Shown here: piece after piece, positions 1 through 61,058 of the stretch
Layout of the letters: each line of letters begins with the position of its first letter
Numbering within the stretch: the first letter of the stretch is position 1
Source of the DNA: an uncultured bacterium
Lineage (GTDB): Bacteria; Spirochaetota; UBA4802; UB4802
Direction of reading: 5' to 3'
DNA: 64,000 nt
NCBI GenBank assembly: GCA_937920495.1
Contig: CALEUQ010000039.1
Span: forward strand, 8,802 to 72,801
Made by a program: the position numbers and the translations under genes
The notes under the pieces: model-generated
Database searches by the model: none
Told to the model about the DNA's origin: nothing
The model's input: only the letters and a program-made list of their open reading frames with translations

Positions 1-2536
1 AAAATAGCGATTTGGTTAAAAGCTTTTTTACAAATTTTTGATATAGGCCCAGCGTGTTATCTTTTTCAATAATAGGAATAATACCATCGCGCATTTCTTC
101 TAACCTGTATACAAGAGAATTGGAAAGCCGTTCTTTTATGCTTTTATCTTTAAATAATGAGAAGATATTGTTAAAGTTATCCCATACGGGATCATCCCAG
201 CGGGCCGCAAAATATCGCGAACCGCCCGAGCGCTTTTTCAATTCAATGGCACAGGCATTTCTGTTACAACTTGCCTTTGCCTCATTATCCAGAAGACCGT
301 GCGCTCGTGCAATCATTTCGGATAAGCTTTCCTTATGATGGCAAATGAGAATAGCAGCCGATATTGAAATCTTTTCACCCTTCCCCAGCTGAATTGCCAT
401 TTTCCCCACCTGAGGCGTAAACTTTTCTGATAAAGGAAAAACTTTTCCTTTATCATCCACAAATACAAACGGCTGGCAATAGACGTTCTGTATTTCTCTT
501 GCGGAATTCAATGCATTAAACGCTGGAAGTATTGCACAGATATCATCGCCACCAGCATATATGAGCCTTCCACGATACCGCTCAATAATTTCTTTTACAC
601 TGAAAAGTGAAAAATCACCCAGCGCCTCAGAAATTGCAGCATGAACTGCAGGAGAAAGCATCCTCTTTTTCAAAGATTGGCTTTTAAAAATATCTTCCCA
701 CTCTTTTGTATACACATCTGCAAGGGTTTTATTTTTTAGCTTATCTACAATTTCCGGATGTATCACAGTTTCCCACGTTGATGCCACGCTCTCACCATTG
801 ATGAGCGATCCCATATTGTCGCCATCCATTAAAAGTATGGCATAATACTTATCCTCTTCATACATCTTTATTTTTGTATGCACAACTTTCGCAATCTGCT
901 TTTCAAACTCATCATTTTCATGTAAATTCTGCGCTATTTCCCATTTATCATTTTTATTTTCAATATTGTATCTTTTAAAAAAATTATCAAGAGCTATTTC
1001 TGTTGTGGAGGGAAATGCGTCGGCATTGGCAAAGATATGTGATAATATATGTGAGTTTCCTTTTAGAACGATTGCAGCAAGCCTTTTCACCACACATACC
1101 GCACAAAGTTTTTCTCCCTCAGTAAAATCAAATTTCCCATACCCCTGTTTCACCTTTTCCCAGAATGCCTGTATATGCTTTGTGTATGTTGAAGCTTTCA
1201 CATCTTCAGGATATTCAACAGTATGAAGGACTTCAAACTCGCCGCATAAGTGGCACTTTTCACCATTTTCAGGAAGTCTATGAATGGTTCGCCTGCTCTT
1301 AGCAGATGCAAGCGCACTCTGCACAAGCCGATGCGTTACATTATAAAAACACCCCTGAAATGAACTGGAGGACAATTTTGCAAACTTTTGCGCCAGTTCC
1401 CAGGAAGCTTTATATACTTCTTCTTCAAAATAGTTTTTTAGGGAGTCAATATCCCTTTCCCCGATCATACCCGCACAGGCATAATTAATATCCCAGAAAA
1501 AACCTGTTTGACGTTTAAACATTTTTTCAATTGCATTTTTTTCTTTATCATTAATTGAACATTTTTTAACTATTGAAGAACATATCTGCAAAGAAAGCTC
1601 ATTCCATTTTGAAAGTATTGTTTCTTTTATTTTTTCACAAAAATCCTTAGCTTCAGAATAGGGAAGTAAAAACAAAAATTTATTTGGAAACGTGGCTATT
1701 TCGGATGGCTTTGGCAAACACGATTCCTGAATGAGCGCATCAAAGCCCGCAATACGTTTGAGATACATTTCAACCAGTGGCTGGTCAAGCAATGAAGGGT
1801 ACAATACATGATCAGGGCCAAGGTTCTCTGTCACATACCTGATGCCTTCAAATGCCAGCCATGACAGCAAAATCGATGAGGTCCAGTAATCCCGCAATTT
1901 GCGCGCTTTTGCAATAAAACCCTGCACAGGAGTTATGCTAAATACCGCAAGCGCTACTCCTTCCTGGGCTTTTGCAAGCTCCATGGAGCTATACAGCGCA
2001 GAAACAAGTGCATTGTGATGCCATATCGAGTGATCAGGCATGCGAGTATCAGCGGGTAATCTATGCCACAGCCCACCAAGTCCTGAGATATTTTTTGATG
2101 CAAGCCTGTACCGCAGCAAAAAATATAAGTAATAGAATCGATTGCGCACCCGTTCTATTTCATTGCCGCCATCAATTATTGTTATATCGTTTTCAATTAG
2201 TCCTTTAATTTCTTCGTAATTAATATCTTTAACATCTACATCTATTCCTATTCTGCTATTTGACGATACCGGATGGGTTGTTACTGGATTTTGTAAAAAA
2301 TTAACTGCGCCGCTTGTCTTTTCATCAGCTTGATACCCGGGCAACACCGCGCGTTCAAAACCAGCGGCCAACACATCTGCCGTTTTCCAGAATTTTTCCT
2401 GGCAGCTTTCCACTCCCAGCGCTTTGAGGTATTCAACTGCCCGCCCTTCATGTCCTGGTATTTTAAGCGCTTTATCAAAAGGATCGTGCAAAAAAGCTGC
2501 AATTTTATTATTCCAGTATGAAGTGTCTAAATTCAC
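1..2536 (-). CDS. cas10: Type III CRISPR-Cas Cas10/Cmr2 large subunit. It is 3'-partial because its C-terminus runs off the window start.
   Basis: The minus-strand reading frame is continuous from a GTG at 2536 (GGAGGA SD at 2542-2547) to position 1, about 845 codons. It is absent from the ORF track because it has no in-window stop. The translation shows an N-terminal HD motif (AAFLHDPFDK), a treble-clef zinc finger (CHLCGEF...CAVCVV) and a palm GGDD motif (LIYAGGDDICAI), in the canonical Cas10 domain order. Confidence 0.8.
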   Translation of the reverse strand, partial: MNLDTSYWNNKIAAFLHDPFDKALKIPGHEGRAVEYLKALGVESCQEKFWKTADVLAAGFERAVLPGYQADEKTSGAVNFLQNPVTTHPVSSNSRIGIDVDVKDINYEEIKGLIENDITIIDGGNEIERVRNRFYYLYFLLRYRLASKNISGLGGLWHRLPADTRMPDHSIWHHNALVSALYSSMELAKAQEGVALAVFSITPVQGFIAKARKLRDYWTSSILLSWLAFEGIRYVTENLGPDHVLYPSLLDQPLVEMYLKRIAGFDALIQESCLPKPSEIATFPNKFLFLLPYSEAKDFCEKIKETILSKWNELSLQICSSIVKKCSINDKEKNAIEKMFKRQTGFFWDINYACAGMIGERDIDSLKNYFEEEVYKASWELAQKFAKLSSSSFQGCFYNVTHRLVQSALASAKSRRTIHRLPENGEKCHLCGEFEVLHTVEYPEDVKASTYTKHIQAFWEKVKQGYGKFDFTEGEKLCAVCVVKRLAAIVLKGNSHILSHIFANADAFPSTTEIALDNFFKRYNIENKNDKWEIAQNLHENDEFEKQIAKVVHTKIKMYEEDKYYAILLMDGDNMGSLINGESVASTWETVIHPEIVDKLKNKTLADVYTKEWEDIFKSQSLKKRMLSPAVHAAISEALGDFSLFSVKEIIERYRGRLIYAGGDDICAILPAFNALNSAREIQNVYCQPFVFVDDKGKVFPLSEKFTPQVGKMAIQLGKGEKISISAAILICHHKESLSEMIARAHGLLDNEAKASCNRNACAIELKKRSGGSRYFAARWDDPVWDNFNNIFSLFKDKSIKERLSNSLVYRLEEMRDGIIPIIEKDNTLGLYQKFVKKLLTKSLF

Positions 2537-2574
2537 GTATTCCTCCTTTCCTTCTATGGATACGTTGAATCAAG

Positions 2575-3573
2575 TTAATAAATTGTTTTTATATCTTGAC
2601 CGGAGTGAATCTTTTTTAGAACGCCGGACATTTTTTGAGTAACGTTTGCATACTCGCCATTATCAGCAAGGGGCCCCTGATATTTATATGGCAGTACTAA
2701 AATCTTTCCCTGATATTTTCCCTCTTCTGTCTTGTTTACATGCAAAAAGCATGTTTTGGCGTGCCTCCCGTCTTTTACTTCCTCTTCTTTTGCCTGGACA
2801 ATTGGTAGGGCAATATATTTTCTATTGCCGTAATCATGTTTATTAATTGCTATCTCCTGTGATAATCGCATGGTGCGGTATGCTATGCCAATCTCAGAAA
2901 GCGCATCTTCCCATTTTTCATGCACCTTGAAAGCAAATAACTGCGATTTCTTAGAAAACGAGGTATATTTTGCTTCATCGGTTGCTATTTTTTTATGAAA
3001 TTCAATTATCGGAACATCTTTTGAATATACAGATCCAAAGCCATTTCGGCTCTTTGCTCCCATTCCACCATAATGGATGAGTGCGCTCAAGGCTTTTTCC
3101 ACTTCATCTTTTACAGCTTCTGACGTGTACATACAGTGTAGTATAAACGTGCTGCCGGGTGCGATATGCTTTCTGGACCAATTATGATTAGATGGGTCGT
3201 AGATTCCCAATCCTAAATAGGTAAAAATATCTATGTTGAAATTCTTGTTTTGCCTGACTACCTCAACCTTTTTCCCCTCTGCAATTTTATCCTTAATTTC
3301 TATTTTCTTTGTTTCTATGAACATTGAGAAAGGTGACTTTGATAGTGAATCATTCATGGCAGAGCCAAATACTGCCGATTCCTGTTTTTTTAGTTCATCC
3401 AGATTATGTATTGGATGTATTGCTCGCCACCAGAAACGAAGCAATCCTTTTATTGAGGCAGCTCTAAGTTCAGGCCTGGATATATCCGCACCCGACATGA
3501 ACAACGGAGTGACAACCTCGATTTCATAACTTTTTTTTATCCTGTAATTATATTTACCAATGTAGAACGCCAT
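2575..3573 (-). CDS. cmr1: Type III-B RAMP protein, Cmr1-like (Cas7 superfamily). It is the first gene of the cmr operon.
   Basis: This 332-aa protein starts MAFYIGKYNYRIK...VVTPLFMSGAD...ELRAASIKGLLRFWWRA, the typical RAMP N-terminal signature. It lies immediately upstream of cas10 on the same strand and is preceded by a 970-bp gene-free region. Confidence 0.6.
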   Translation of the reverse strand: MAFYIGKYNYRIKKSYEIEVVTPLFMSGADISRPELRAASIKGLLRFWWRAIHPIHNLDELKKQESAVFGSAMNDSLSKSPFSMFIETKKIEIKDKIAEGKKVEVVRQNKNFNIDIFTYLGLGIYDPSNHNWSRKHIAPGSTFILHCMYTSEAVKDEVEKALSALIHYGGMGAKSRNGFGSVYSKDVPIIEFHKKIATDEAKYTSFSKKSQLFAFKVHEKWEDALSEIGIAYRTMRLSQEIAINKHDYGNRKYIALPIVQAKEEEVKDGRHAKTCFLHVNKTEEGKYQGKILVLPYKYQGPLADNGEYANVTQKMSGVLKKIHSGQDIKTIY

Positions 3574-4542
3574 TGTTCCCCCTAAATATTAATAAAAGTT
3601 TATTAATATCTAAAATAAACTGACATCCATTACATGAAGTACGATCTTTTTCAAGGCAGGTTTGCAACTTTAGCGTCCAGCCAAATACACCACGCAAGGC
3701 TATATCTGGAAAGTTGAAAAACCGTATAGGCTTGGTTGCGTGTAAAAGTATTTTAAATTTATATAATAGTAAGGTAGCTTTTTGTGATAATATCATTCAA
3801 ACTCCTTGTCTATTACAAAAACTAACAAATGATGTCATACATAAAAACAAAAGTCAAACACTTTTCATTTTTACAAATTCTATCAACTATACTTTTCATA
3901 TCAATAACAGTACAAATTAACCTAATTATATTCACTATTTAATTTAATTTTAATTGTTATATGATAATCGTCCCTATTCCATTTCAGGCAATGACTGCAT
4001 GCAGGGCAGCCTGAACAATCATAAAAAATGGGACTCTTCTGATCTAACAACCCACCTACTTTTACTATATGAGACCCTGTTCATACACATATACACTTTG
4101 TATAATGCAACCTCTGTTTTTACATTTTGTTTTGTTCGATAGTTACAGGCTATAAAACATCATTTTCTTAGCTATCCATATATATTAATGACAGTGATAA
4201 CCACAGTTTTATAGGAGTACTTTGCTTTTTATTTTTACCCGATTATACATACAATAGATAGAAAATCACTTAAATAGACGGTGAATGCAGGTGTTATGGA
4301 TTCATAAAATTATACCAGGTATGGTATAAAGAATTGTACTTCCAATCTACCACCGATTACGGTGTAAACCTTTCACATTGTGATTCACCTGTCATACACC
4401 TGAATCGTCACGCAAAGCGATTATTATTGTACAGCATGGCTTTTAGGTTACAGCAGGATACACACCTTTTACATAAACACAATTTTAATCATCATTAATA
4501 TTTCTACTTGACACCACCCATAACCTACTTTTTCCATAAACT

Positions 4543-6126
4543 ATGGAGCAACTTCATCATCTTATTACTCAATTAAATTCAAAACCTAAAGAAGAGCGTA
4601 ATAACTTTTACCGTGACGCTATATTACCAATTATAAGTGATTTGCTGCATCAGCAATATCAACAATATCTACAATCAAACAATTACAATTCATATTTAAC
4701 TCTCATCACAACGCTTTCACATGATATCAATATCTTACTGCTTTTACTGTACAGCATTAAGCCCAAATACCTTGTGGTATTTTATACCAGCGATAAAAAC
4801 AAGTTGATTGAAAAACTATACCCCCTAACTCAATCACTACAACTCAACATAGAAACAATACAGCTTGATAGTACCAATCACAACAATAACAATAGTAAAA
4901 TAAAGGATACAATCAAACGTTACAAAAAAAACTATCATCCTGTGCTATGCGACATCACAGGTGGCAAAAAGATTTTTTCAACACAAATTGGTATACTGGC
5001 GCATTCATTAAAAACCGACATTGCATACATTGATTCATCAAAAGGTTTTTTACAGTGGGGCATACCTCTGCCCGGCACTGAAATATTATACATTCAAAAA
5101 CCTGATAACATCTTCAATTTGCTTGAAATATATCATGCCAATAAATTGCGAATACGCTTTAACAGCATCTCTTCAAATATAGAGTATGAAGCCGATGTTA
5201 ATGGAAGGTTGTACAGGTTAGGCCAGAAAAAACTAAAACCAGAGGAAATCGATAAACTGGTAGATTATGTAAACCGCTTTTACATGGATATCAATGCTTC
5301 TATCATCAATAATTCATATTCCACAATTAACATGGGGAAATATGCTCTGTCATTTAAAACCCTTCTTTTTACAAAAGAGCTCAATCATTTCGTTTCAATA
5401 CACAACAATTTAACTCATTTAGTCATAGATAATGAATTGAGTGCGTTTCCGTGGGAATTTATCTTTGCTCACTGCAACGTAAGTTTACCACTGTTTCGTA
5501 TTCCCAATCGTGATAGTAATTTCATTGAAAATAATAAATGTAATAATCAAAAAAGCATTGCATTCATCACAGGTTATGGTGAAAATCTCCCGGATTTTGC
5601 AACCACAGTACATAATATTAAATTGCTGTTATCAAAAGAAAAACAATTTTCACTGGCTACTATCACCGCAAAAAACTCATTTGAATTAAAAAAATTTTTT
5701 GCCGAATATAGTTCCAATCCCTTTACAGTGGTTATATTTTTTGGCCATGCAGCATTTGGTAACTGCAGTGAAAACACAGGCTTGATATGCCAGGATGGAA
5801 GTATTTTTTCTATTGAAGATTGTGATGTGCTAAGCGGCTCCCCACCTGAATGCATACTCATTAATTCCTGTCAATCAGCTCGCTGCAGTTTGTTTACACC
5901 CAATTCTTTTGCTCATGCTGTTATAAATTCGGGAGTTGAAACCTATATTGGGACCCATTTTTTTTTAGAATATAAACGAAGTATTTGTTTTTTACAATCA
6001 TTTCTTAAAGCTATTGCATGCAACCACACTTATGCAGATGCGTATAAATATAGCATCGATAGCATTACTCAACAATTTGGCAAAAATGATATAAGTACAT
6101 ATAATTATGTATACTACGGATATTAA
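4543..6126 (+). CDS. Fusion of a CARF-domain sensor to a caspase/CHAT-like cysteine peptidase. It is a candidate cyclic-oligoadenylate-activated protease.
   Basis: This 527-aa protein has, at residues about 75-260, a beta1 strand ending in polar residues (LVVFYTSD) and the strand-4 [DN]x[ST]xxx[RK] CARF signature (DITGGKK). Its C-terminal 190 aa has a caspase-fold pattern: KSIAFITGYG, then a His in VVIFFGHAAFG, then a Cys in ECILINSCQSA, followed by a CHAT-like tail (NSGVETYIGTHFFLEYK). There is no SD before the only possible ATG, so the mRNA may be leaderless. The gene is adjacent to cmr1. Confidence 0.6.
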   Translation: MEQLHHLITQLNSKPKEERNNFYRDAILPIISDLLHQQYQQYLQSNNYNSYLTLITTLSHDINILLLLLYSIKPKYLVVFYTSDKNKLIEKLYPLTQSLQLNIETIQLDSTNHNNNNSKIKDTIKRYKKNYHPVLCDITGGKKIFSTQIGILAHSLKTDIAYIDSSKGFLQWGIPLPGTEILYIQKPDNIFNLLEIYHANKLRIRFNSISSNIEYEADVNGRLYRLGQKKLKPEEIDKLVDYVNRFYMDINASIINNSYSTINMGKYALSFKTLLFTKELNHFVSIHNNLTHLVIDNELSAFPWEFIFAHCNVSLPLFRIPNRDSNFIENNKCNNQKSIAFITGYGENLPDFATTVHNIKLLLSKEKQFSLATITAKNSFELKKFFAEYSSNPFTVVIFFGHAAFGNCSENTGLICQDGSIFSIEDCDVLSGSPPECILINSCQSARCSLFTPNSFAHAVINSGVETYIGTHFFLEYKRSICFLQSFLKAIACNHTYADAYKYSIDSITQQFGKNDISTYNYVYYGY

Positions 6127-6139
6127 TTGATTGCTAACA

Positions 6140-8182
6140 TTAAAATGGAAACAAATACCATAAAGTATTCCATTTGATAACAGGTGTATCTTTATACTTT
6201 TCTTGCACCTTTACTAAATAGTCATACAATGTTGTACCTAAACTTTGTTGTAACACTTTGTGCCATATTTTTTTTATTTCTTCCTGCAAGCTTTTTAATG
6301 AAGCACTATCTTTAAGCGATAAAAGCCAGATATAGTCAGCTCTTATTGATAATTCTTTTGTCAGGATTGTAACATTTTCATTTTTCATGCATAACTCACG
6401 TGCATGATTATAGAAGTCATTTGCTTGCTTTATGGATGAGTTTGAACCATATAGACCATACAAAACCATTACATAATGATATATAGAATGAACAGGATAG
6501 GTTGACACTTTTACCATTGATTCAACATTTGCTTTATACTTATTAAAACACGTAGTTACTATCTCATAATACTTTTTAACATTTTTTGAATAATCGTTCA
6601 TTAGCTCTACGTAGTATATACGCAAAAAATGCAATAATGGAAATAATAATGATCTTTTTAAGATATCTTCCAGCAATTGCATATCATTGTGATATTCAAC
6701 ACCACACCCTTTTGCTAGATTTCGTCTTGCTTCTTCAAAGTTTTTTGTATACGTTTCAATTTGTGCACAGTACTGATACTGACGCATGATGTCTTCAGAT
6801 TGAACAAAGCTTTGTAGTGCTTTTTTAGAAATGTCCCTCACTTCTTCCCAGCTGCCCCCGTGTATTAAAGTGTGATACATCTTTGCTTGCAATTTTGTTC
6901 CAATAATTTCACCAAGTATGCGTGGTTGCACAACTATATTCTCATCGCTTTCACTTAGAAAACTAAATGCCTCGCTTACTTTTTTTTCAAGATTGTGCAT
7001 TTCATTGAAAGACCATTCAAATGCATACATATTGGTAAGATGCACACCATAGAGTACCTTGATACGTAACCGCGCACTTAAATAATCTAAATCAAATGGA
7101 ATTGATTTGATAAATGAGTATGCCTGTCTGTATACATCTTCAAATGTATGTACATCACCTTTATGGTTATATAAAGTAAGCAGGATCATATAACAGTAGG
7201 TATATATCCAGTGAATGTCTTCTTTACGTTTACCATAATCAGGAAGTTTTTCTTCTAAACGTGGCAAAATGTTTTCTATTATAAATAATATATCACTGTC
7301 CAAATCTTTTAAAATTCTATCTTCATTTATTGCATTATAATAAAGAGCAAGCAAAGATGAAAATATACTGTTAATATAAAAGATATTTAGTTTACATAAC
7401 TGCTCTAAAACATCAGGTAGGATTTTTTTTACCGCATTATCCTTTAAAGCGTTGTCGATTAAATTCTTTAACGCATACTCATACAGATTATCATTCATCA
7501 AATTATTAATCTTTTCAGTAATGGTTGGTGAAGCATGAATATATATTTTATGTTGTTCTATCCATATATTGAATTTTTCTACTACTTTTTGATCATACCT
7601 ATCATTACCATTTATATGCGTATCTAATCTATAAAACGTATGAACAATTGCATCAGCTAATTGTAAAAAATAATTTTTTTTACTTTCCACCTCTACCTTG
7701 GTTTTTATGTTTCTATTAGGTAATGGTGATAATACTATGGCCTTTGTAACTAATTCGTTTATTCTTTCTTTATATTCTTCTTCTTTTATTCCTACTCTAT
7801 GTTCGATAGTAACCGTTAATTCACTAATATCCTGGAATAATTTTGATTTTTTTTTAATAAATGCAAAAATTCCCTCAGCCAGCACATGCAGGTAAGTTTT
7901 AGTATCATTTATAACATAAAAACCACGCTGAGGGATAAAGATTATCGGAATAATATCATTTTGTTTACAAAAATCTATCAAATTATCTATTACAGCCAAT
8001 AAAGTTGAATTTGATAATTCGTTACCATGAAAAATTTCAGATTCTAAATTAAATTGTCTAAAAAAATTTGCTACATCGTTACTTGTTAAAATTTTGTCTT
8101 TAATAAAAAAACCACCAACAATACTACGTTTTTGTTTATAACCCTGAAATTTTCCACTTTCATCAAGGTACAAATAAGCCAT
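6140..8182 (-). CDS. DUF3800-domain protein with a large C-terminal alpha-helical (TPR-like) domain. It is the last gene of the sigma/anti-sigma operon.
   Basis: This 680-aa protein has an N-terminus MAYLYLDESGKF... and a later QLADAIVHTFYR, matching the DUF3800 (yiDESG...QlAD) signature. About 480 helical residues follow. It begins 15 nt after the anti-sigma stop, with GATGGA upstream. Confidence 0.5.
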   Translation of the reverse strand: MAYLYLDESGKFQGYKQKRSIVGGFFIKDKILTSNDVANFFRQFNLESEIFHGNELSNSTLLAVIDNLIDFCKQNDIIPIIFIPQRGFYVINDTKTYLHVLAEGIFAFIKKKSKLFQDISELTVTIEHRVGIKEEEYKERINELVTKAIVLSPLPNRNIKTKVEVESKKNYFLQLADAIVHTFYRLDTHINGNDRYDQKVVEKFNIWIEQHKIYIHASPTITEKINNLMNDNLYEYALKNLIDNALKDNAVKKILPDVLEQLCKLNIFYINSIFSSLLALYYNAINEDRILKDLDSDILFIIENILPRLEEKLPDYGKRKEDIHWIYTYCYMILLTLYNHKGDVHTFEDVYRQAYSFIKSIPFDLDYLSARLRIKVLYGVHLTNMYAFEWSFNEMHNLEKKVSEAFSFLSESDENIVVQPRILGEIIGTKLQAKMYHTLIHGGSWEEVRDISKKALQSFVQSEDIMRQYQYCAQIETYTKNFEEARRNLAKGCGVEYHNDMQLLEDILKRSLLFPLLHFLRIYYVELMNDYSKNVKKYYEIVTTCFNKYKANVESMVKVSTYPVHSIYHYVMVLYGLYGSNSSIKQANDFYNHARELCMKNENVTILTKELSIRADYIWLLSLKDSASLKSLQEEIKKIWHKVLQQSLGTTLYDYLVKVQEKYKDTPVIKWNTLWYLFPF

Positions 8183-21184: not shown

Positions 21185-22144
21185 ATGGCTCTGACCCCAA
21201 CACCCGTACGAACATTACAACATTACCTGGAAGAAGCCATCTTTGTGGGACAGGCCCACCGGCTTGGCGTGTTTAAAGAACTTTATACAAAGCCAGATAC
21301 ATCAGATGGCCTTGCAAAAAGAATGCAATTTGACACACGCGCAACATGGATACTTTTAGAAGCGCTTGTTGAATTGGGATACCTTGAAAAAAATAATGAA
21401 ATCTATAGTCCCACAGAATATTGCACACATCATTTAATTGACGAAAAAAACGATGAATACGAGGGTAACTTTTTACAGTTCTTACTGTATCTCATCAACC
21501 CGTGGCGCACATTGCCTCATGTACTAAGTACCGGAAGTCCTGATGAATCCAGCTTTAAGGAATTATCCATGCATGATTTTATCAAAGGTATGGATTCCCC
21601 CTGGAAAAAGAAATTAGCGCCTGAAATAGTTGACCTGTGTATTGCACATTGCTCTGACCCCACAACCTGCATTGACATAGGTGGTGCCCCCGGAACAATT
21701 GCCAGAGAATTTGTGCGCAGGGGAATTAAAACAATAGTATTTGATCTGCCTCAATCACTAGCAATAACTCAAGATGAGTTGACAACCATCCCCAATATAG
21801 AAGTAATAGCAGGCGATGCAACAGTTGCATTACCGGATCGCAAGGTTGATATAGCATTTTTAGGAAATCTGTGCCATGGGCAAGGGCCTGAAGATAATCA
21901 GAAAATAATAACCATGTGCTATGATAGCCTTAATAAGAATGGTATCATAGCTATATTTGATAACTTACGAAACGAAAGTTATTTAGGTGCAACGCTTGCT
22001 CTTCACATGTTAACCCAAAGCAAAAAGGGCAATATCTATTCACGCCAGGAATATTTTGGATGGCTGGGCAATGCCGGCTTTAAAACACCTAAAGTATACC
22101 AGCTATCCGATAGGGCATGGCAGCTTATTATTGCAAAAAAATAA
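21185..22144 (+). CDS. SAM-dependent O-methyltransferase (Methyltransf_2-like, with an N-terminal dimerisation/wHTH domain).
   Basis: The protein shows CIDIGGAPGTIAREF...IKTIVFDLPQ, with an N-terminal wHTH-like region. Confidence 0.7.
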   Translation: MALTPTPVRTLQHYLEEAIFVGQAHRLGVFKELYTKPDTSDGLAKRMQFDTRATWILLEALVELGYLEKNNEIYSPTEYCTHHLIDEKNDEYEGNFLQFLLYLINPWRTLPHVLSTGSPDESSFKELSMHDFIKGMDSPWKKKLAPEIVDLCIAHCSDPTTCIDIGGAPGTIAREFVRRGIKTIVFDLPQSLAITQDELTTIPNIEVIAGDATVALPDRKVDIAFLGNLCHGQGPEDNQKIITMCYDSLNKNGIIAIFDNLRNESYLGATLALHMLTQSKKGNIYSRQEYFGWLGNAGFKTPKVYQLSDRAWQLIIAKK

Positions 22145-22510
22145 AGAGGGGTACATAAGCCGGATTCTGTTTTGACAGCCATCAATCTTGCATGCATGTT
22201 GCCATGCATGTCTATGCGGCCTACCCGCAACCTTGAGCGGGCAACTCTGATAACGGTTGCCTATTTGGCCTTGCACCGGATGGGGTTTGCACTGCCACCT
22301 GCATTACTGCAGATGCGGTGAGCTCTTACCTCGCCTTTTCACCCTTACCCCACTATGGGGCGGTATATTTTCTGCTGCACTTTCCGTCGCCTTACAGCGC
22401 CCGGGCGTTACCCGGCATCCTGCCCTGTGGTGTCCGGACTTTCCTCACAACAATGCACACACCACACTGTGTATGTACATTGTGCGCATGCCGTCTGTAC
22501 CCCTCTTACT
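22142..22510 (-). ncRNA. rnpB: RNase P RNA (bacterial type A), M1 RNA.
   Basis: The minus-strand read gives AAGAGGGGTACAGACGG...GTGAGGAAAGTCCGGACACCACAGGGCAGGATGCCGGGTAACGCCCGGGCGCTG...GGTAAGGGTGAAAAGGCGAGGTAAGAGCTCACCGC...GTGCAAGGCCAAATAGG...GCGGGTAGGCCGC...ACAGAATCCGGCTTATGTACCCCTCTT. This matches the E. coli P4, P10-12, P15 and P18 consensus blocks. The P1 5' and 3' ends are complementary and followed by a U-tract. The track ORFs 22257-22603 on + lie inside it and are spurious. Confidence 0.85.
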
Positions 22511-45902: not shown

Positions 45903-46040
45903 ACACATACCCCATAATAAATAGGAATTTTTGACGCGAAGTAATAAAGTTAAAATGGAGAGTGTACCACATATAAATTTATTCCATTTGTATGTCAACA
46001 AAAGTTTTATGTTTCAAACGTAAAATTGCATTTCAATAAT

Positions 46041-46146
46041 AAAATTTGTGAACATAATAAACATATTGTACACCCCCGCCGGCTTCGGCGGCGGGGATGT
46101 GCACTTTTTTATTAACAAAATATTTGTAAGGAATTATTAGTGAAAG
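46041..46146 (+). repeat. Hairpin-containing intergenic element copy A. It has a conserved 5' box, a GC-rich extended hairpin with a UUCG loop, a T-run and a conserved 3' box. Its paralog lies at 49881-49982.
   Basis: It aligns with 49881-49982 at about 88% identity. The hairpin at 46067-46103 is TGTACAC-CCCCGCCG-G-C-ttcg-G-CGGCGGGG-A-TGTGCA. It is followed by CTTTTTTATT. Confidence 0.7.
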
Positions 46147-46260
46147 TAATTGACATTTCCTTTTTAACCAATTAGAATTACACAATTAAAAAAATCAATT
46201 TACACAACATAAGCTGAAAAATGTGTTGTAATACCATGTATACAGATGGTGGAGAAATAT

Positions 46261-47271
46261 ATGAAAAATATACGAACACATCATTATGTATATTGTATTA
46301 TTTTTATGATTTTAATTGTATTGTTTGCCACCTATCCCATTTACGGATATGACGAATCTGATGATGATAAGATCTGGGTTGGTATAAATCTCCAACCATG
46401 GATATGGTGGAATGTTTCTTATTTTTTTAGCAAAGACTATGATGAAAAAGAATATTTACATTATAAGTTTGAACGCTCTTCACTGACTGCTTATGAGTCA
46501 AACATACGCCTCTCTGATTATGGAATTACGTTGGGAGTACAAATAGATGCGGGTGATAGAATGATTGGAAAAATTGAGGAAATACTTGGGTACTTTGGAT
46601 ATAAGGGCTTTATACTAAAAATAACCTATGGGAACCTGGAAGGAGCAGCCAGGTGGGATGGCACACTTCAACCTGGTATGTCATCACGCTTTGATTACAA
46701 ATTTAAATTTAAACATTATGATTTGCTCTATTACCCCGAAGATTTTGGATACTATGGTTTTGGACACACGGCATTCACTATTCCGGTACGCGTTAAATTT
46801 TTAGATAACGCTAGTATGTCTTATGGGACACCGATATATGACAAAAACTATCAAGTATCACTCTATTCAATAATTGTGGCATTGGACTCGTTATCTTCGG
46901 CAGTCCGTGGGGTAGAGAATCAATTAACCCAACCATCTATGGGATTAACTTTGTGGCTTTTGTACAATGTTAGATTTGGTGCCGGGAAGGGAACACTGAG
47001 CAACGAAGCATTGCAATGGGCGTTGTCAGCTAATCCAGGGAAAAAAATCGTAGGTCAGAAATCAACCGTGACGTATCTTGGTGCAGAAGCTGCAATTGGG
47101 CTTGCTTATTTCTTTACCGAAAATTCTGCATTAGGTGTTGGTTACAGTGGCAGTACTGCAATGATACAAAAGTGGGGAGGAGGAGCTTCTGATTATACTG
47201 AACTTGGGTATGATACGTCTTTTCAGTTATCCAACCATGGGCCCGTATTTAGATTTTATCTACTCTTTTAA
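46261..47271 (+). CDS. Putative outer-membrane beta-barrel protein.
   Basis: A GGTGGAGA SD precedes the ATG at 46261. A signal peptide is present. The sequence is beta-rich and Gly/Tyr-rich. The C-terminus is ...FRFYLLF, ending in an aromatic residue as in OM barrels. Confidence 0.5.
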   Translation: MKNIRTHHYVYCIIFMILIVLFATYPIYGYDESDDDKIWVGINLQPWIWWNVSYFFSKDYDEKEYLHYKFERSSLTAYESNIRLSDYGITLGVQIDAGDRMIGKIEEILGYFGYKGFILKITYGNLEGAARWDGTLQPGMSSRFDYKFKFKHYDLLYYPEDFGYYGFGHTAFTIPVRVKFLDNASMSYGTPIYDKNYQVSLYSIIVALDSLSSAVRGVENQLTQPSMGLTLWLLYNVRFGAGKGTLSNEALQWALSANPGKKIVGQKSTVTYLGAEAAIGLAYFFTENSALGVGYSGSTAMIQKWGGGASDYTELGYDTSFQLSNHGPVFRFYLLF

Positions 47272-47279
47272 ACTGTTCG

Positions 47280-49841: not shown

Positions 49842-49880
49842 AAACTTCTTTAAGCATTCCCTTGCAAGTACTTTAAAATA

Positions 49881-49982
49881 AAATTTTTGAACATAATAAA
49901 CATATTGTACAGCCCTCCGCCGAAGGCGGCGGGGGTGTACACCGTTTTATTAACAAAATATTTTTTAAGGAATTATTAGTGA
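49881..49982 (+). repeat. Hairpin-containing intergenic element copy B, the paralog of 46041-46146.
   Basis: The hairpin at 49905-49940 is TGTACA-G-CCCTCCGCC-gaa-GGCGGCGGGG-G-TGTACA. It is followed by CCGTTTTATT. It lies 64 nt after the stop of the 48843-49841 gene. Confidence 0.7.
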
Positions 49983-50130
49983 ACGACAACCATACTATCG
50001 ATGAAGGAAATGCATAGTAATGTAAAAATATTCTTGACTTATAGAAAATAAAAATTTTTGCTTTTCACAATTAATGTCGTGGTAGTTAAAAATTTTATGT
50101 TTTTAAAAATATTCAGGAGGATCGGATTAT

Positions 50131-60455: not shown

Positions 60456-61058
60456 GTATAATCCATGTAGTGCTAAACAATTCATTGTACAAAAGTTTTA
60501 ATGCCACAACCCTTTCTTTACATTTTTTATCCACAATGCACTTTTGAGAACATGTATGGTATGTACACGTACTCACCACATTAGTCAACTTAAATTAGTG
60601 TATCTACTTACACTATCGCTTTTTGAAATACAATCTATAATTTTGTTACAGCATTTTCATTTTTGGCGATAGTTACCGGACACATTACCACTGACAAAAA
60701 TAGTATTGACATTTATATACTACACATCTCTTAATATTGCCCATGACGCTATTACACTTTTGTAACAATAATATTTACAATGATGTATACCAATAATTCC
60801 GTGCGATTATTGATGAATAATAAAGCGATCGCAATTAACCTTTGTATGGCAGGTGTGAAATTTTTACTTTTTTACACACAGTTTTTGTGTAAGACTTCAA
60901 AGTAAATTTTTTTTGTAAAATGTATATACACAATATATGAATTATTTTCAACGCCACAAAGCAGAACTTTACTAAAAGAATCAACGAAAAAAATACAGCT
61001 ATTCTGATGAAGAATACAGAGAAGCTTTGAAAAGCTTGAAGAAGACAACAGGTGGCGT

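Follow-up and report, generated by a model that had tools for sequence, protein, structure and literature searches.

Two copies of a hairpin-forming repeat, here called A and B, lie 3.84 kb apart as direct repeats in the stretch of uncultured bacterial DNA analysed here (the window, 64 kb), and raise the question of whether they are related regulatory RNA elements or pieces of mobile DNA. The preliminary description preferred the former. From comparison with relatives and metagenomes we conclude that A and B are very probably members of a family of MITEs (non-coding, non-autonomous transposons) belonging to a genus-level group of uncultured Spirochaetota.

The two copies in the window and their surroundings

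The two-copy repeat was borne out with slightly wider limits: copy A spans 46038-46144 and copy B 49877-49983, both on the forward strand (family-profile nhmmer E = 6e-27 and 3.6e-26 respectively). Each copy is 107 nt long, no others occur within the window, and the two agree in 96 of the 110 columns of a global alignment. Their differences concentrate in the hairpin, with 9 in 39 columns compared with 1 in 29 in the 5′ flank and 4 in 42 in the 3′ flank. The 5′ and 3′ boxes reported as common to both are indeed so: for a 23-nt 5′ box, a 17-nt box and an 18-nt box alike, the window has exactly two occurrences, against chance expectations of 0.00, 0.15 and 0.16 from dinucleotide-preserving shuffles. 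The only ORF overlapping copy A encodes 50 amino acids from a TTG start.

A strong hairpin followed by a T-run, also part of the preliminary description, was found in both copies. The central GC-rich hairpin of copy A (46067-46103, +) reads TGTACA.CCCCGCCG.G.C(TTCG)G.CGGCGGGG.A.TGTGCA and has a predicted RNA folding energy of -27.2 kcal/mol (z = -4.5); one nucleotide (C) past it, sequence reading identifies a T6 run (46105-46110, +) that forms a terminator-like tail. The corresponding hairpin of copy B (49906-49941, +), TGTACA.G.CCC.T.CCGCC(GAA)GGCGG.C.GGG.GG.TGTACA, folds at -25.1 kcal/mol (z = -4.3) and is followed, after three nucleotides (CCG), by a weaker terminator-like tail of T4 (49945-49948, +; sequence reading). 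Neither copy matched Rfam at the gathering threshold or at a permissive one (E up to 5). The only Rfam match above the gathering threshold in the window is an RNase P RNA gene of bacterial class A at 22141-22506 on the reverse strand (301 bits).

The gene order across the region, assigned with Pfam and NCBIfam, is rpoD-dnaG-yqeY (-), copy A, a gene for a 341-aa protein (+), an MFS_3 exporter (-), DUF4015 (+), copy B, an L-lactate MFS transporter (+), and then an ARMT1-like gene, a phosphoribosyltransferase and carB (-). Copy A thus lies between the start of the yqeY-dnaG-rpoD operon and the 341-aa gene's promoter; copy B is flanked by the stop codon of DUF4015 (49841) and the start of the L-lactate transporter (50131). 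It had been proposed that both copies precede transporter or porin genes. This holds for copy B, whose 3′ neighbour scores above the cut-off of the NCBIfam L-lactate MFS transporter model. It does not hold for copy A: the 341-aa protein matches no Pfam or NCBIfam family, so that the label porin is unsupported. A strong sigma-70-like promoter of the 341-aa gene, TTGACA-17-TAGAAT (11/12 consensus positions; 46150-46178, +), begins 6 nt past copy A and is context outside the element. The same gene is annotated in a 336-aa form on a short contig of the same strain, and a look-up of the exact 341-aa protein and of YqeY gave no record. GC content shows no shift along the region. Elsewhere in the window lies a type III-B CRISPR-Cas locus (1-8093 and beyond; 4298-15519 of contig L101) with RAMP/Cmr genes, Cas10-Cmr2, Cmr3, Cmr5, Csx1 and Cas1, adjoined by a gene for a CHAT-domain protein (4543-6126, +).

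The wider repeat family and its insertion sites

A pattern fitting A, B and a diverged copy in a relative (L003, below) was scanned against the JGI metagenomes. Matches fell at 16 loci, many of them at contig ends, and a single sample (Ga0067045) accounts for all; it contains more than 20 full or partial copies of the family. The full element is a non-coding, near-perfect palindrome of ~120 nt (full copies 111-124 nt). It is bounded by ~18-nt terminal inverted repeats (TIRs), CACTAATTATTCCTAAAT ... ATTTAGGAATAATTAGTG, inside which lie AT-rich arms and, at the centre, a GC-rich hairpin, TGTACACCCCCGCCGCC-loop-GGCGGCGGGGGTGTACA. Full copies fold as a single long hairpin with energies of -48 to -53 kcal/mol (z = -6.8 to -9.2). 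In a scripted comparison, the 9-mers flanking seven of the nine full copies matched at 8 or 9 of 9 positions (for example AAATTTAAT, AAAAAAAAT and ATAATTTAA), while 128 displaced comparisons, run as a control for target duplication, reached a maximum of 7/9. Copies L085 and L096 scored 2 and 1 in the script, and 9/9 by hand once the left boundary was moved by one base. All family copies are intergenic, and they occur in either orientation relative to the neighbouring genes. The preliminary description had stated that its finding would fail if there were no discrete transcript and many dispersed copies behaved as a passive repeat; the second half of this is what the scan returned, namely 16 loci with no orientation bias.

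The host of the copies in Ga0067045 belongs to the Spirochaetota. Beside one of them (L092) lies a PAS kinase gene that recurs at 98% identity in a Spirochaetota MAG; its ortholog in the MAG that supplied L004 is 78% identical, and there the insertion site is empty. Other searches for the family drew blanks. The exact 23-nt 5′ box had no match among 185,579 species genomes, an initial metagenome scan based on the 3′ boxes found none, and the family pattern matched no viral contig. A search for a cognate autonomous insertion sequence, covering the window and 97 fetched loci, found the terminus motif only at MITE copies. In the literature we found neither a named Leptospira MITE with these features nor a description of the family.

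Prokaryotic MITEs are defined as elements of < 500 bp with TIRs of 4-30 bp, AT-rich intergenic targets and stable stem-loops (PMC10969869). The TIRs, the 9-bp target duplication, the small size, the AT-rich intergenic targets, the stem-loop and the filled and empty sites described below place the family within this definition. The hallmarks are distributed unevenly over the copies. All are below 500 bp and dispersed in multiple positions; the canonical copies have both TIRs, whereas A and B have a single intact TIR and no target duplication above chance. The element inserts into AT-rich intergenic DNA, duplicating 9 bp of the target, and we propose that an insertion sequence provides, in trans, the DDE-type transposase that would mobilize it. 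The cognate transposase gene would then be bounded by CACTAATTATTCC...GGAATAATTAGTG with 9-bp duplications. The 5′ and 3′ boxes of the preliminary description correspond to the AT-rich arms plus one terminal repeat, and its 'extended stem' to the centre of the palindrome.

A DnaG search groups the source organism with uncultured Spirochaetota, the MAGs L002-L007 having 79-88% DnaG identity; two of these are labelled Leptospira by their submitters. The order rpoD-dnaG-yqeY | MFS_3 | DUF4015-MFS_1 | ARMT1-PRT-carB is conserved in the relatives, which allowed us to compare orthologous sites. Copy B is missing in L002, L003, L005, L006 and L099, with the flanking genes syntenic. The gap between DUF4015 and the transporter is 290 bp in the window, as against 116-136 bp in these five relatives, where the conserved block AAAAATATTCTTGACT begins 7-8 nt past the DUF4015 stop codon and the conserved block upstream of the transporter ~15 nt past it. 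Alignment of the orthologous intergenic regions puts the whole insertion at 49842-50018 (+), ~177 nt, comprising copy B and ~35 nt on each side. These two flanking segments (49842-49876 and 49984-50018) are absent in the relatives and have no match in other fetched sequence; a motif from the surroundings of copy B, CATTTCCTT, recurs to the right of copy A (46153-46161). An outer inverted repeat of the insertion, AAGCATTCCCTT / AAGGAAATGCAT, is marginal only, being reached in 59 of 2000 shuffles. An apparently duplicated DUF4015 C-terminus in the MAFFT alignment of the copy B site was not significant and was discarded.

Copy A, together with the 341-aa gene, is absent in L003, L004 and L005. 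In L099 the 341-aa gene is found at the same place with 75% identity, and the contig ends before the position of copy A. The gap between the yqeY start and the MFS_3 end is a variable spot: it measures 1.4 kb in the window (45903-47279, holding copy A and the 341-aa gene), ~110-210 bp in L003, L004 and L005, ~1 kb in L002 and ~1.9 kb in L006. L004 also carries an unrelated ~90-bp insertion (6281-6497) in its gap between DUF4015 and the transporter, indicating that this gap has been hit more than once in the clade. Upstream of carB, L003 has a diverged copy of the family where the corresponding site in the window is empty, and in L104, L105 and L106 the orthologous PAS kinase gene is not followed by the L092 copy. 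Filled and empty orthologous sites were thus met at three places: copy B, upstream of carB, and L092.

Within the family, A and B form a subfamily. Relative to the canonical form they share derived features, namely a 5-nt insertion, TAACAAAATAT, and the T-run beside the stem (family alignment). Both retain the terminal inverted repeat TAAGGAATTATTAGTG, which ends in ...AGTG, at 46127-46142 (+) in copy A, where it matches the opposite-strand canonical terminus CACTAATTATTCCTAAA, and at 49966-49981 (+) in copy B (family alignment). At the second terminus the outer ~15 nt are missing or unrecognizable in both. A third subfamily copy lies in the same strain ~4.9 kb past the window end (L100 7959-7989); it shares an exact 20-nt terminus with A and B, and its flank is unrelated. 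The source genome therefore holds at least three copies within ~23 kb (about 90 kb inspected). The three sequences diverge from one another exactly at the family terminus, which argues for independent insertions and against segmental duplication.

The flanks of A and B are no more similar than those of shuffled sequence, and we found no target duplication at either. A likeness between AAACGTAAAATTG and AAAGTAATTG, which flank copy A, needs two indels and was not accepted as a duplication. The direct repeats of MITEs decay with the age of the copy (PMC10969869). Given the missing target duplications and the single intact terminus, we read A and B as old and probably immobile relics of a genome-specific subfamily. 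However, two independent decays would not be expected to remove the same outer ~15 nt, which counts against this reading.

Short-read contigs of the same strain in the Logan collection (ERR9287621) break inside copy A (46071), inside copy B (49954) and at the end of L100; they also break at 60909-60912, which is free of repeats. The repeat explains the assembly breaks at copy sites, but the break at 60909-60912 means that not every break is caused by it. The breaks inside A and B would point, weakly and indirectly, to the presence of more copies.

Differences between copies and the nature of the hairpin

The preliminary description reported compensatory changes between the stems of A and B and took the maintained pairing to suggest an RNA structure under selection. 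Neither step survived closer inspection. No base pair is altered on both sides; all differences are one-sided, indels or a G-T wobble, and the copies do not differ in the 3′ arm GGCGGCGGGG. The TTCG loop of A and the GAAG loop of B represent an inverted hairpin centre: when the centre of B is reverse-complemented it differs from that of A in 3 of 23 positions, compared with 6 of 23 when the two are compared directly. Across the family, pairing is well preserved (92.9% of cells pair in the 11 copies with a complete hairpin). Double-sided changes in these 11 copies are limited to three pairs (C-G to U-A twice and G-C to A-U once); three or more such changes were reached in 9 of 500 shuffles.

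Template switching in quasi-palindromes, a templated repair process in DNA palindromes, yields both loop inversions and symmetric changes. The inverted loops and the symmetric arm changes of the family would be the expected products of such templated repair within a DNA palindrome. Since repair at the DNA level would give the same picture, loop flips and symmetric changes do not demonstrate selection on RNA, and the three family-wide double-sided pairs are explicable in this way. Among 12 aligned copies, the loop orientation relative to the asymmetric outer arms is CC-TTCG-GG in six and CC-GAAG-GG in the other six, and in copy L095b both arms have lost 3 nt symmetrically.

The family also has a long form, of 277 nt in L102 (13526-13808) and ~335 nt in L091 (13645-13980). 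Here, an insert of ~200 nt replaces the central GC hairpin; it has inverted ends of its own, GGGGGTGTCCCAAAA ... TTTTGGGACACCCCC, and carries internal palindromic modules of the GTCATTGCGAGCG / CGAAGCAATC type. The long copy in L102 and the short copy in L092 (244-364) occupy the same site with the same flanks, and the neighbouring protein is 98% identical between the two strains. In strains so nearly identical, the shared site implies that the centre was exchanged or deleted recently.

These features allow a more elaborate proposal, which we consider improbable. The window subfamily would be a one-ended MITE derivative that nevertheless spread to at least three sites; its hairpin and T-run would have been recruited for termination or insulation of transcription, for instance to uncouple the lactate transporter from DUF4015; and its DNA-level hairpin biology, in the form of templated conversion from arm to arm, would be unusually active. 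If this were true, the loop flips in half of the copies, the three two-arm changes and the swap between a short and a ~200-nt centre would amount to arm-to-arm conversion of a kind not known from bacterial MITEs.

Function, alternative explanations and comparison with known systems

An intrinsic terminator consists of a GC-rich stem-loop followed by a U-tract, and both copies have this layout (C plus T6 in A, CCG plus T4 in B). Judged by sequence, the hairpin and T-run are likely to work as a Rho-independent terminator, as a side effect of the element. It is plausible that copy B terminates DUF4015 transcripts just before the block upstream of the lactate transporter; if so, it would be a small but concrete case of a mobile element rewiring an operon boundary. 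Copy A, placed between the conserved -35 region of the yqeY operon and the promoter of the 341-aa gene, could serve as insulation or as an AT-rich upstream sequence. Such effects are compatible with the MITE explanation, and a reading in which the elements arose as MITEs and selection now maintains them, with B ending DUF4015 transcription and A insulating the divergent yqeY and 341-aa promoters, differs from it only in claiming function and selection. We regard this further claim as possible but doubtful. It draws on the strong hairpins, with the T-runs on the strand of upstream or downstream genes, on the better conservation of the A/B arms (5 differences in 71 columns) than of the hairpin (9 in 39), and on the closeness of copy A to the promoter that begins 6 nt past it. 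In the relatives, moreover, nothing lies between the DUF4015 stop codon and the conserved block upstream of the transporter, and terminator-like repeat families of the SPRITE kind are known (PMC10969869). In a palindrome, however, slippage and inversion of the loop account for the excess of differences in the hairpin, and copy A has no upstream gene on the forward strand to terminate. A simple terminator scanner called neither copy, a silence we attribute to the mismatched stems. The random orientation of the family copies to their neighbours speaks against termination as the reason for which the family exists.

The reading preferred in the preliminary description, in which A and B act as paralogous small RNAs or as cis-acting leaders (attenuators) to regulate the transporter or membrane-protein genes downstream, now appears very unlikely. 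Both copies do lie upstream of forward-strand genes, with a stable hairpin, a T-run and conserved flanking boxes in each. Yet copy B is missing from the intergenic region of five close relatives in which the transporter and its upstream block are conserved, and dozens of homologous copies stand beside unrelated genes in both orientations. The promoter-like site downstream of copy A means that the element is not in the leader of the 341-aa gene. With the lack of an Rfam match and of double-sided changes between A and B added, this reading seems already largely refuted by the comparative data. A single local event, leaving A and B either as att-like direct repeats around a 3.8-kb island or as the ends of a segmental duplication, is likewise very improbable. 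It would account for two direct repeats that bracket three genes and are the sole copies in the window, but two of these genes, MFS_3 and DUF4015, stand in conserved synteny in all relatives, from which it follows that no inserted island lies between A and B. The GC content of the segment is that of its surroundings, its genes encode no integrase domain, the family is dispersed elsewhere, and the similarity of A, B and the third copy stops exactly at the family terminus. Integron attC sites were considered and rejected on sequence reading, since the boxes depart from the RYYYAAC/GTTRRRY cores and the three genes between the copies do not all run in one direction.

A palindrome that is GC-rich, intergenic and multi-copy would also be expected of a REP or REPIN-type element mobilized by a RAYT (IS200/IS605-like) transposase. 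Single-strand transposition of the HUH/RAYT type makes no 9-bp target duplications. The full copies, in contrast, have both 9-bp duplications and ~18-nt terminal inverted repeats, features which exclude REPs and REPINs, and a unit of ~120 nt with AT-rich arms is unlike a REP of 20-40 nt; we consider this explanation extremely unlikely. Of the three candidates put forward originally, 'REP-like element' was nevertheless the closest, and the only one in the right direction: the dispersed palindromic intergenic repeat is real, and it is the assignment to REPs that has to give way to a MITE.

The MITE assignment removes a false lead, as the boxes, the UUCG loop and the apparent compensation stem from transposon arms and a palindromic core. 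It also documents a MITE family, with its termini, 9-bp duplication and short and long forms, in a poorly known lineage of uncultured Spirochaetota. The occurrence of the family fits the reported MITE richness of the Leptospirales, an order whose MITE load, a median of ~154 per genome, is one of the highest (PMC11602168).

Like other prokaryotic MITEs, such as MITEAba12 of Acinetobacter and QMITE2 of Coxiella, the element is small (~120 nt), non-coding, bounded by TIRs and targeted to AT-rich intergenic DNA; as in these, the whole element forms one long hairpin, and its presence varies between relatives. Its target duplication of 9 bp compares with direct repeats of 7-9 bp in QMITE2 (PMC10969869). 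The sequence is unrelated to MITEAba12 and QMITE2 as far as tested (no match in Rfam or the viral collection). Unlike typical MITEs, the window copies have a single intact end and no target duplications, and no cognate insertion sequence was found in the fetched sequence. With REP, REPIN and BIME sequences the family shares GC-rich extragenic palindromes in many copies, but REPs are 20-40 nt, RAYT-linked and devoid of the TIRs and target duplications seen here. SPRITE of S. pneumoniae, which a review names among repeats with a possible regulatory role through termination (PMC10969869), is similarly a dispersed intergenic repeat with a core resembling an intrinsic terminator. It differs in phylum and in sequence; mobility is evidenced here by the 9-bp duplications, and a terminator-like T-run is clear in only one orientation, mainly in the window subfamily. 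The Correia elements (NEMIS) of Neisseria are palindromic intergenic MITEs of ~100-155 bp that can supply promoters, terminators or RNA-processing hairpins to neighbouring genes, and resemble the present family as small palindromes in intergenic DNA. They duplicate TA, have 26-bp TIRs and an IHF site, and lack a GC-rich central hairpin with a flipping loop, whereas this family duplicates 9 bp and possesses such a hairpin. The nearest known systems are bacterial MITEs in general, with SPRITE and the Correia elements the closest in functional flavour.
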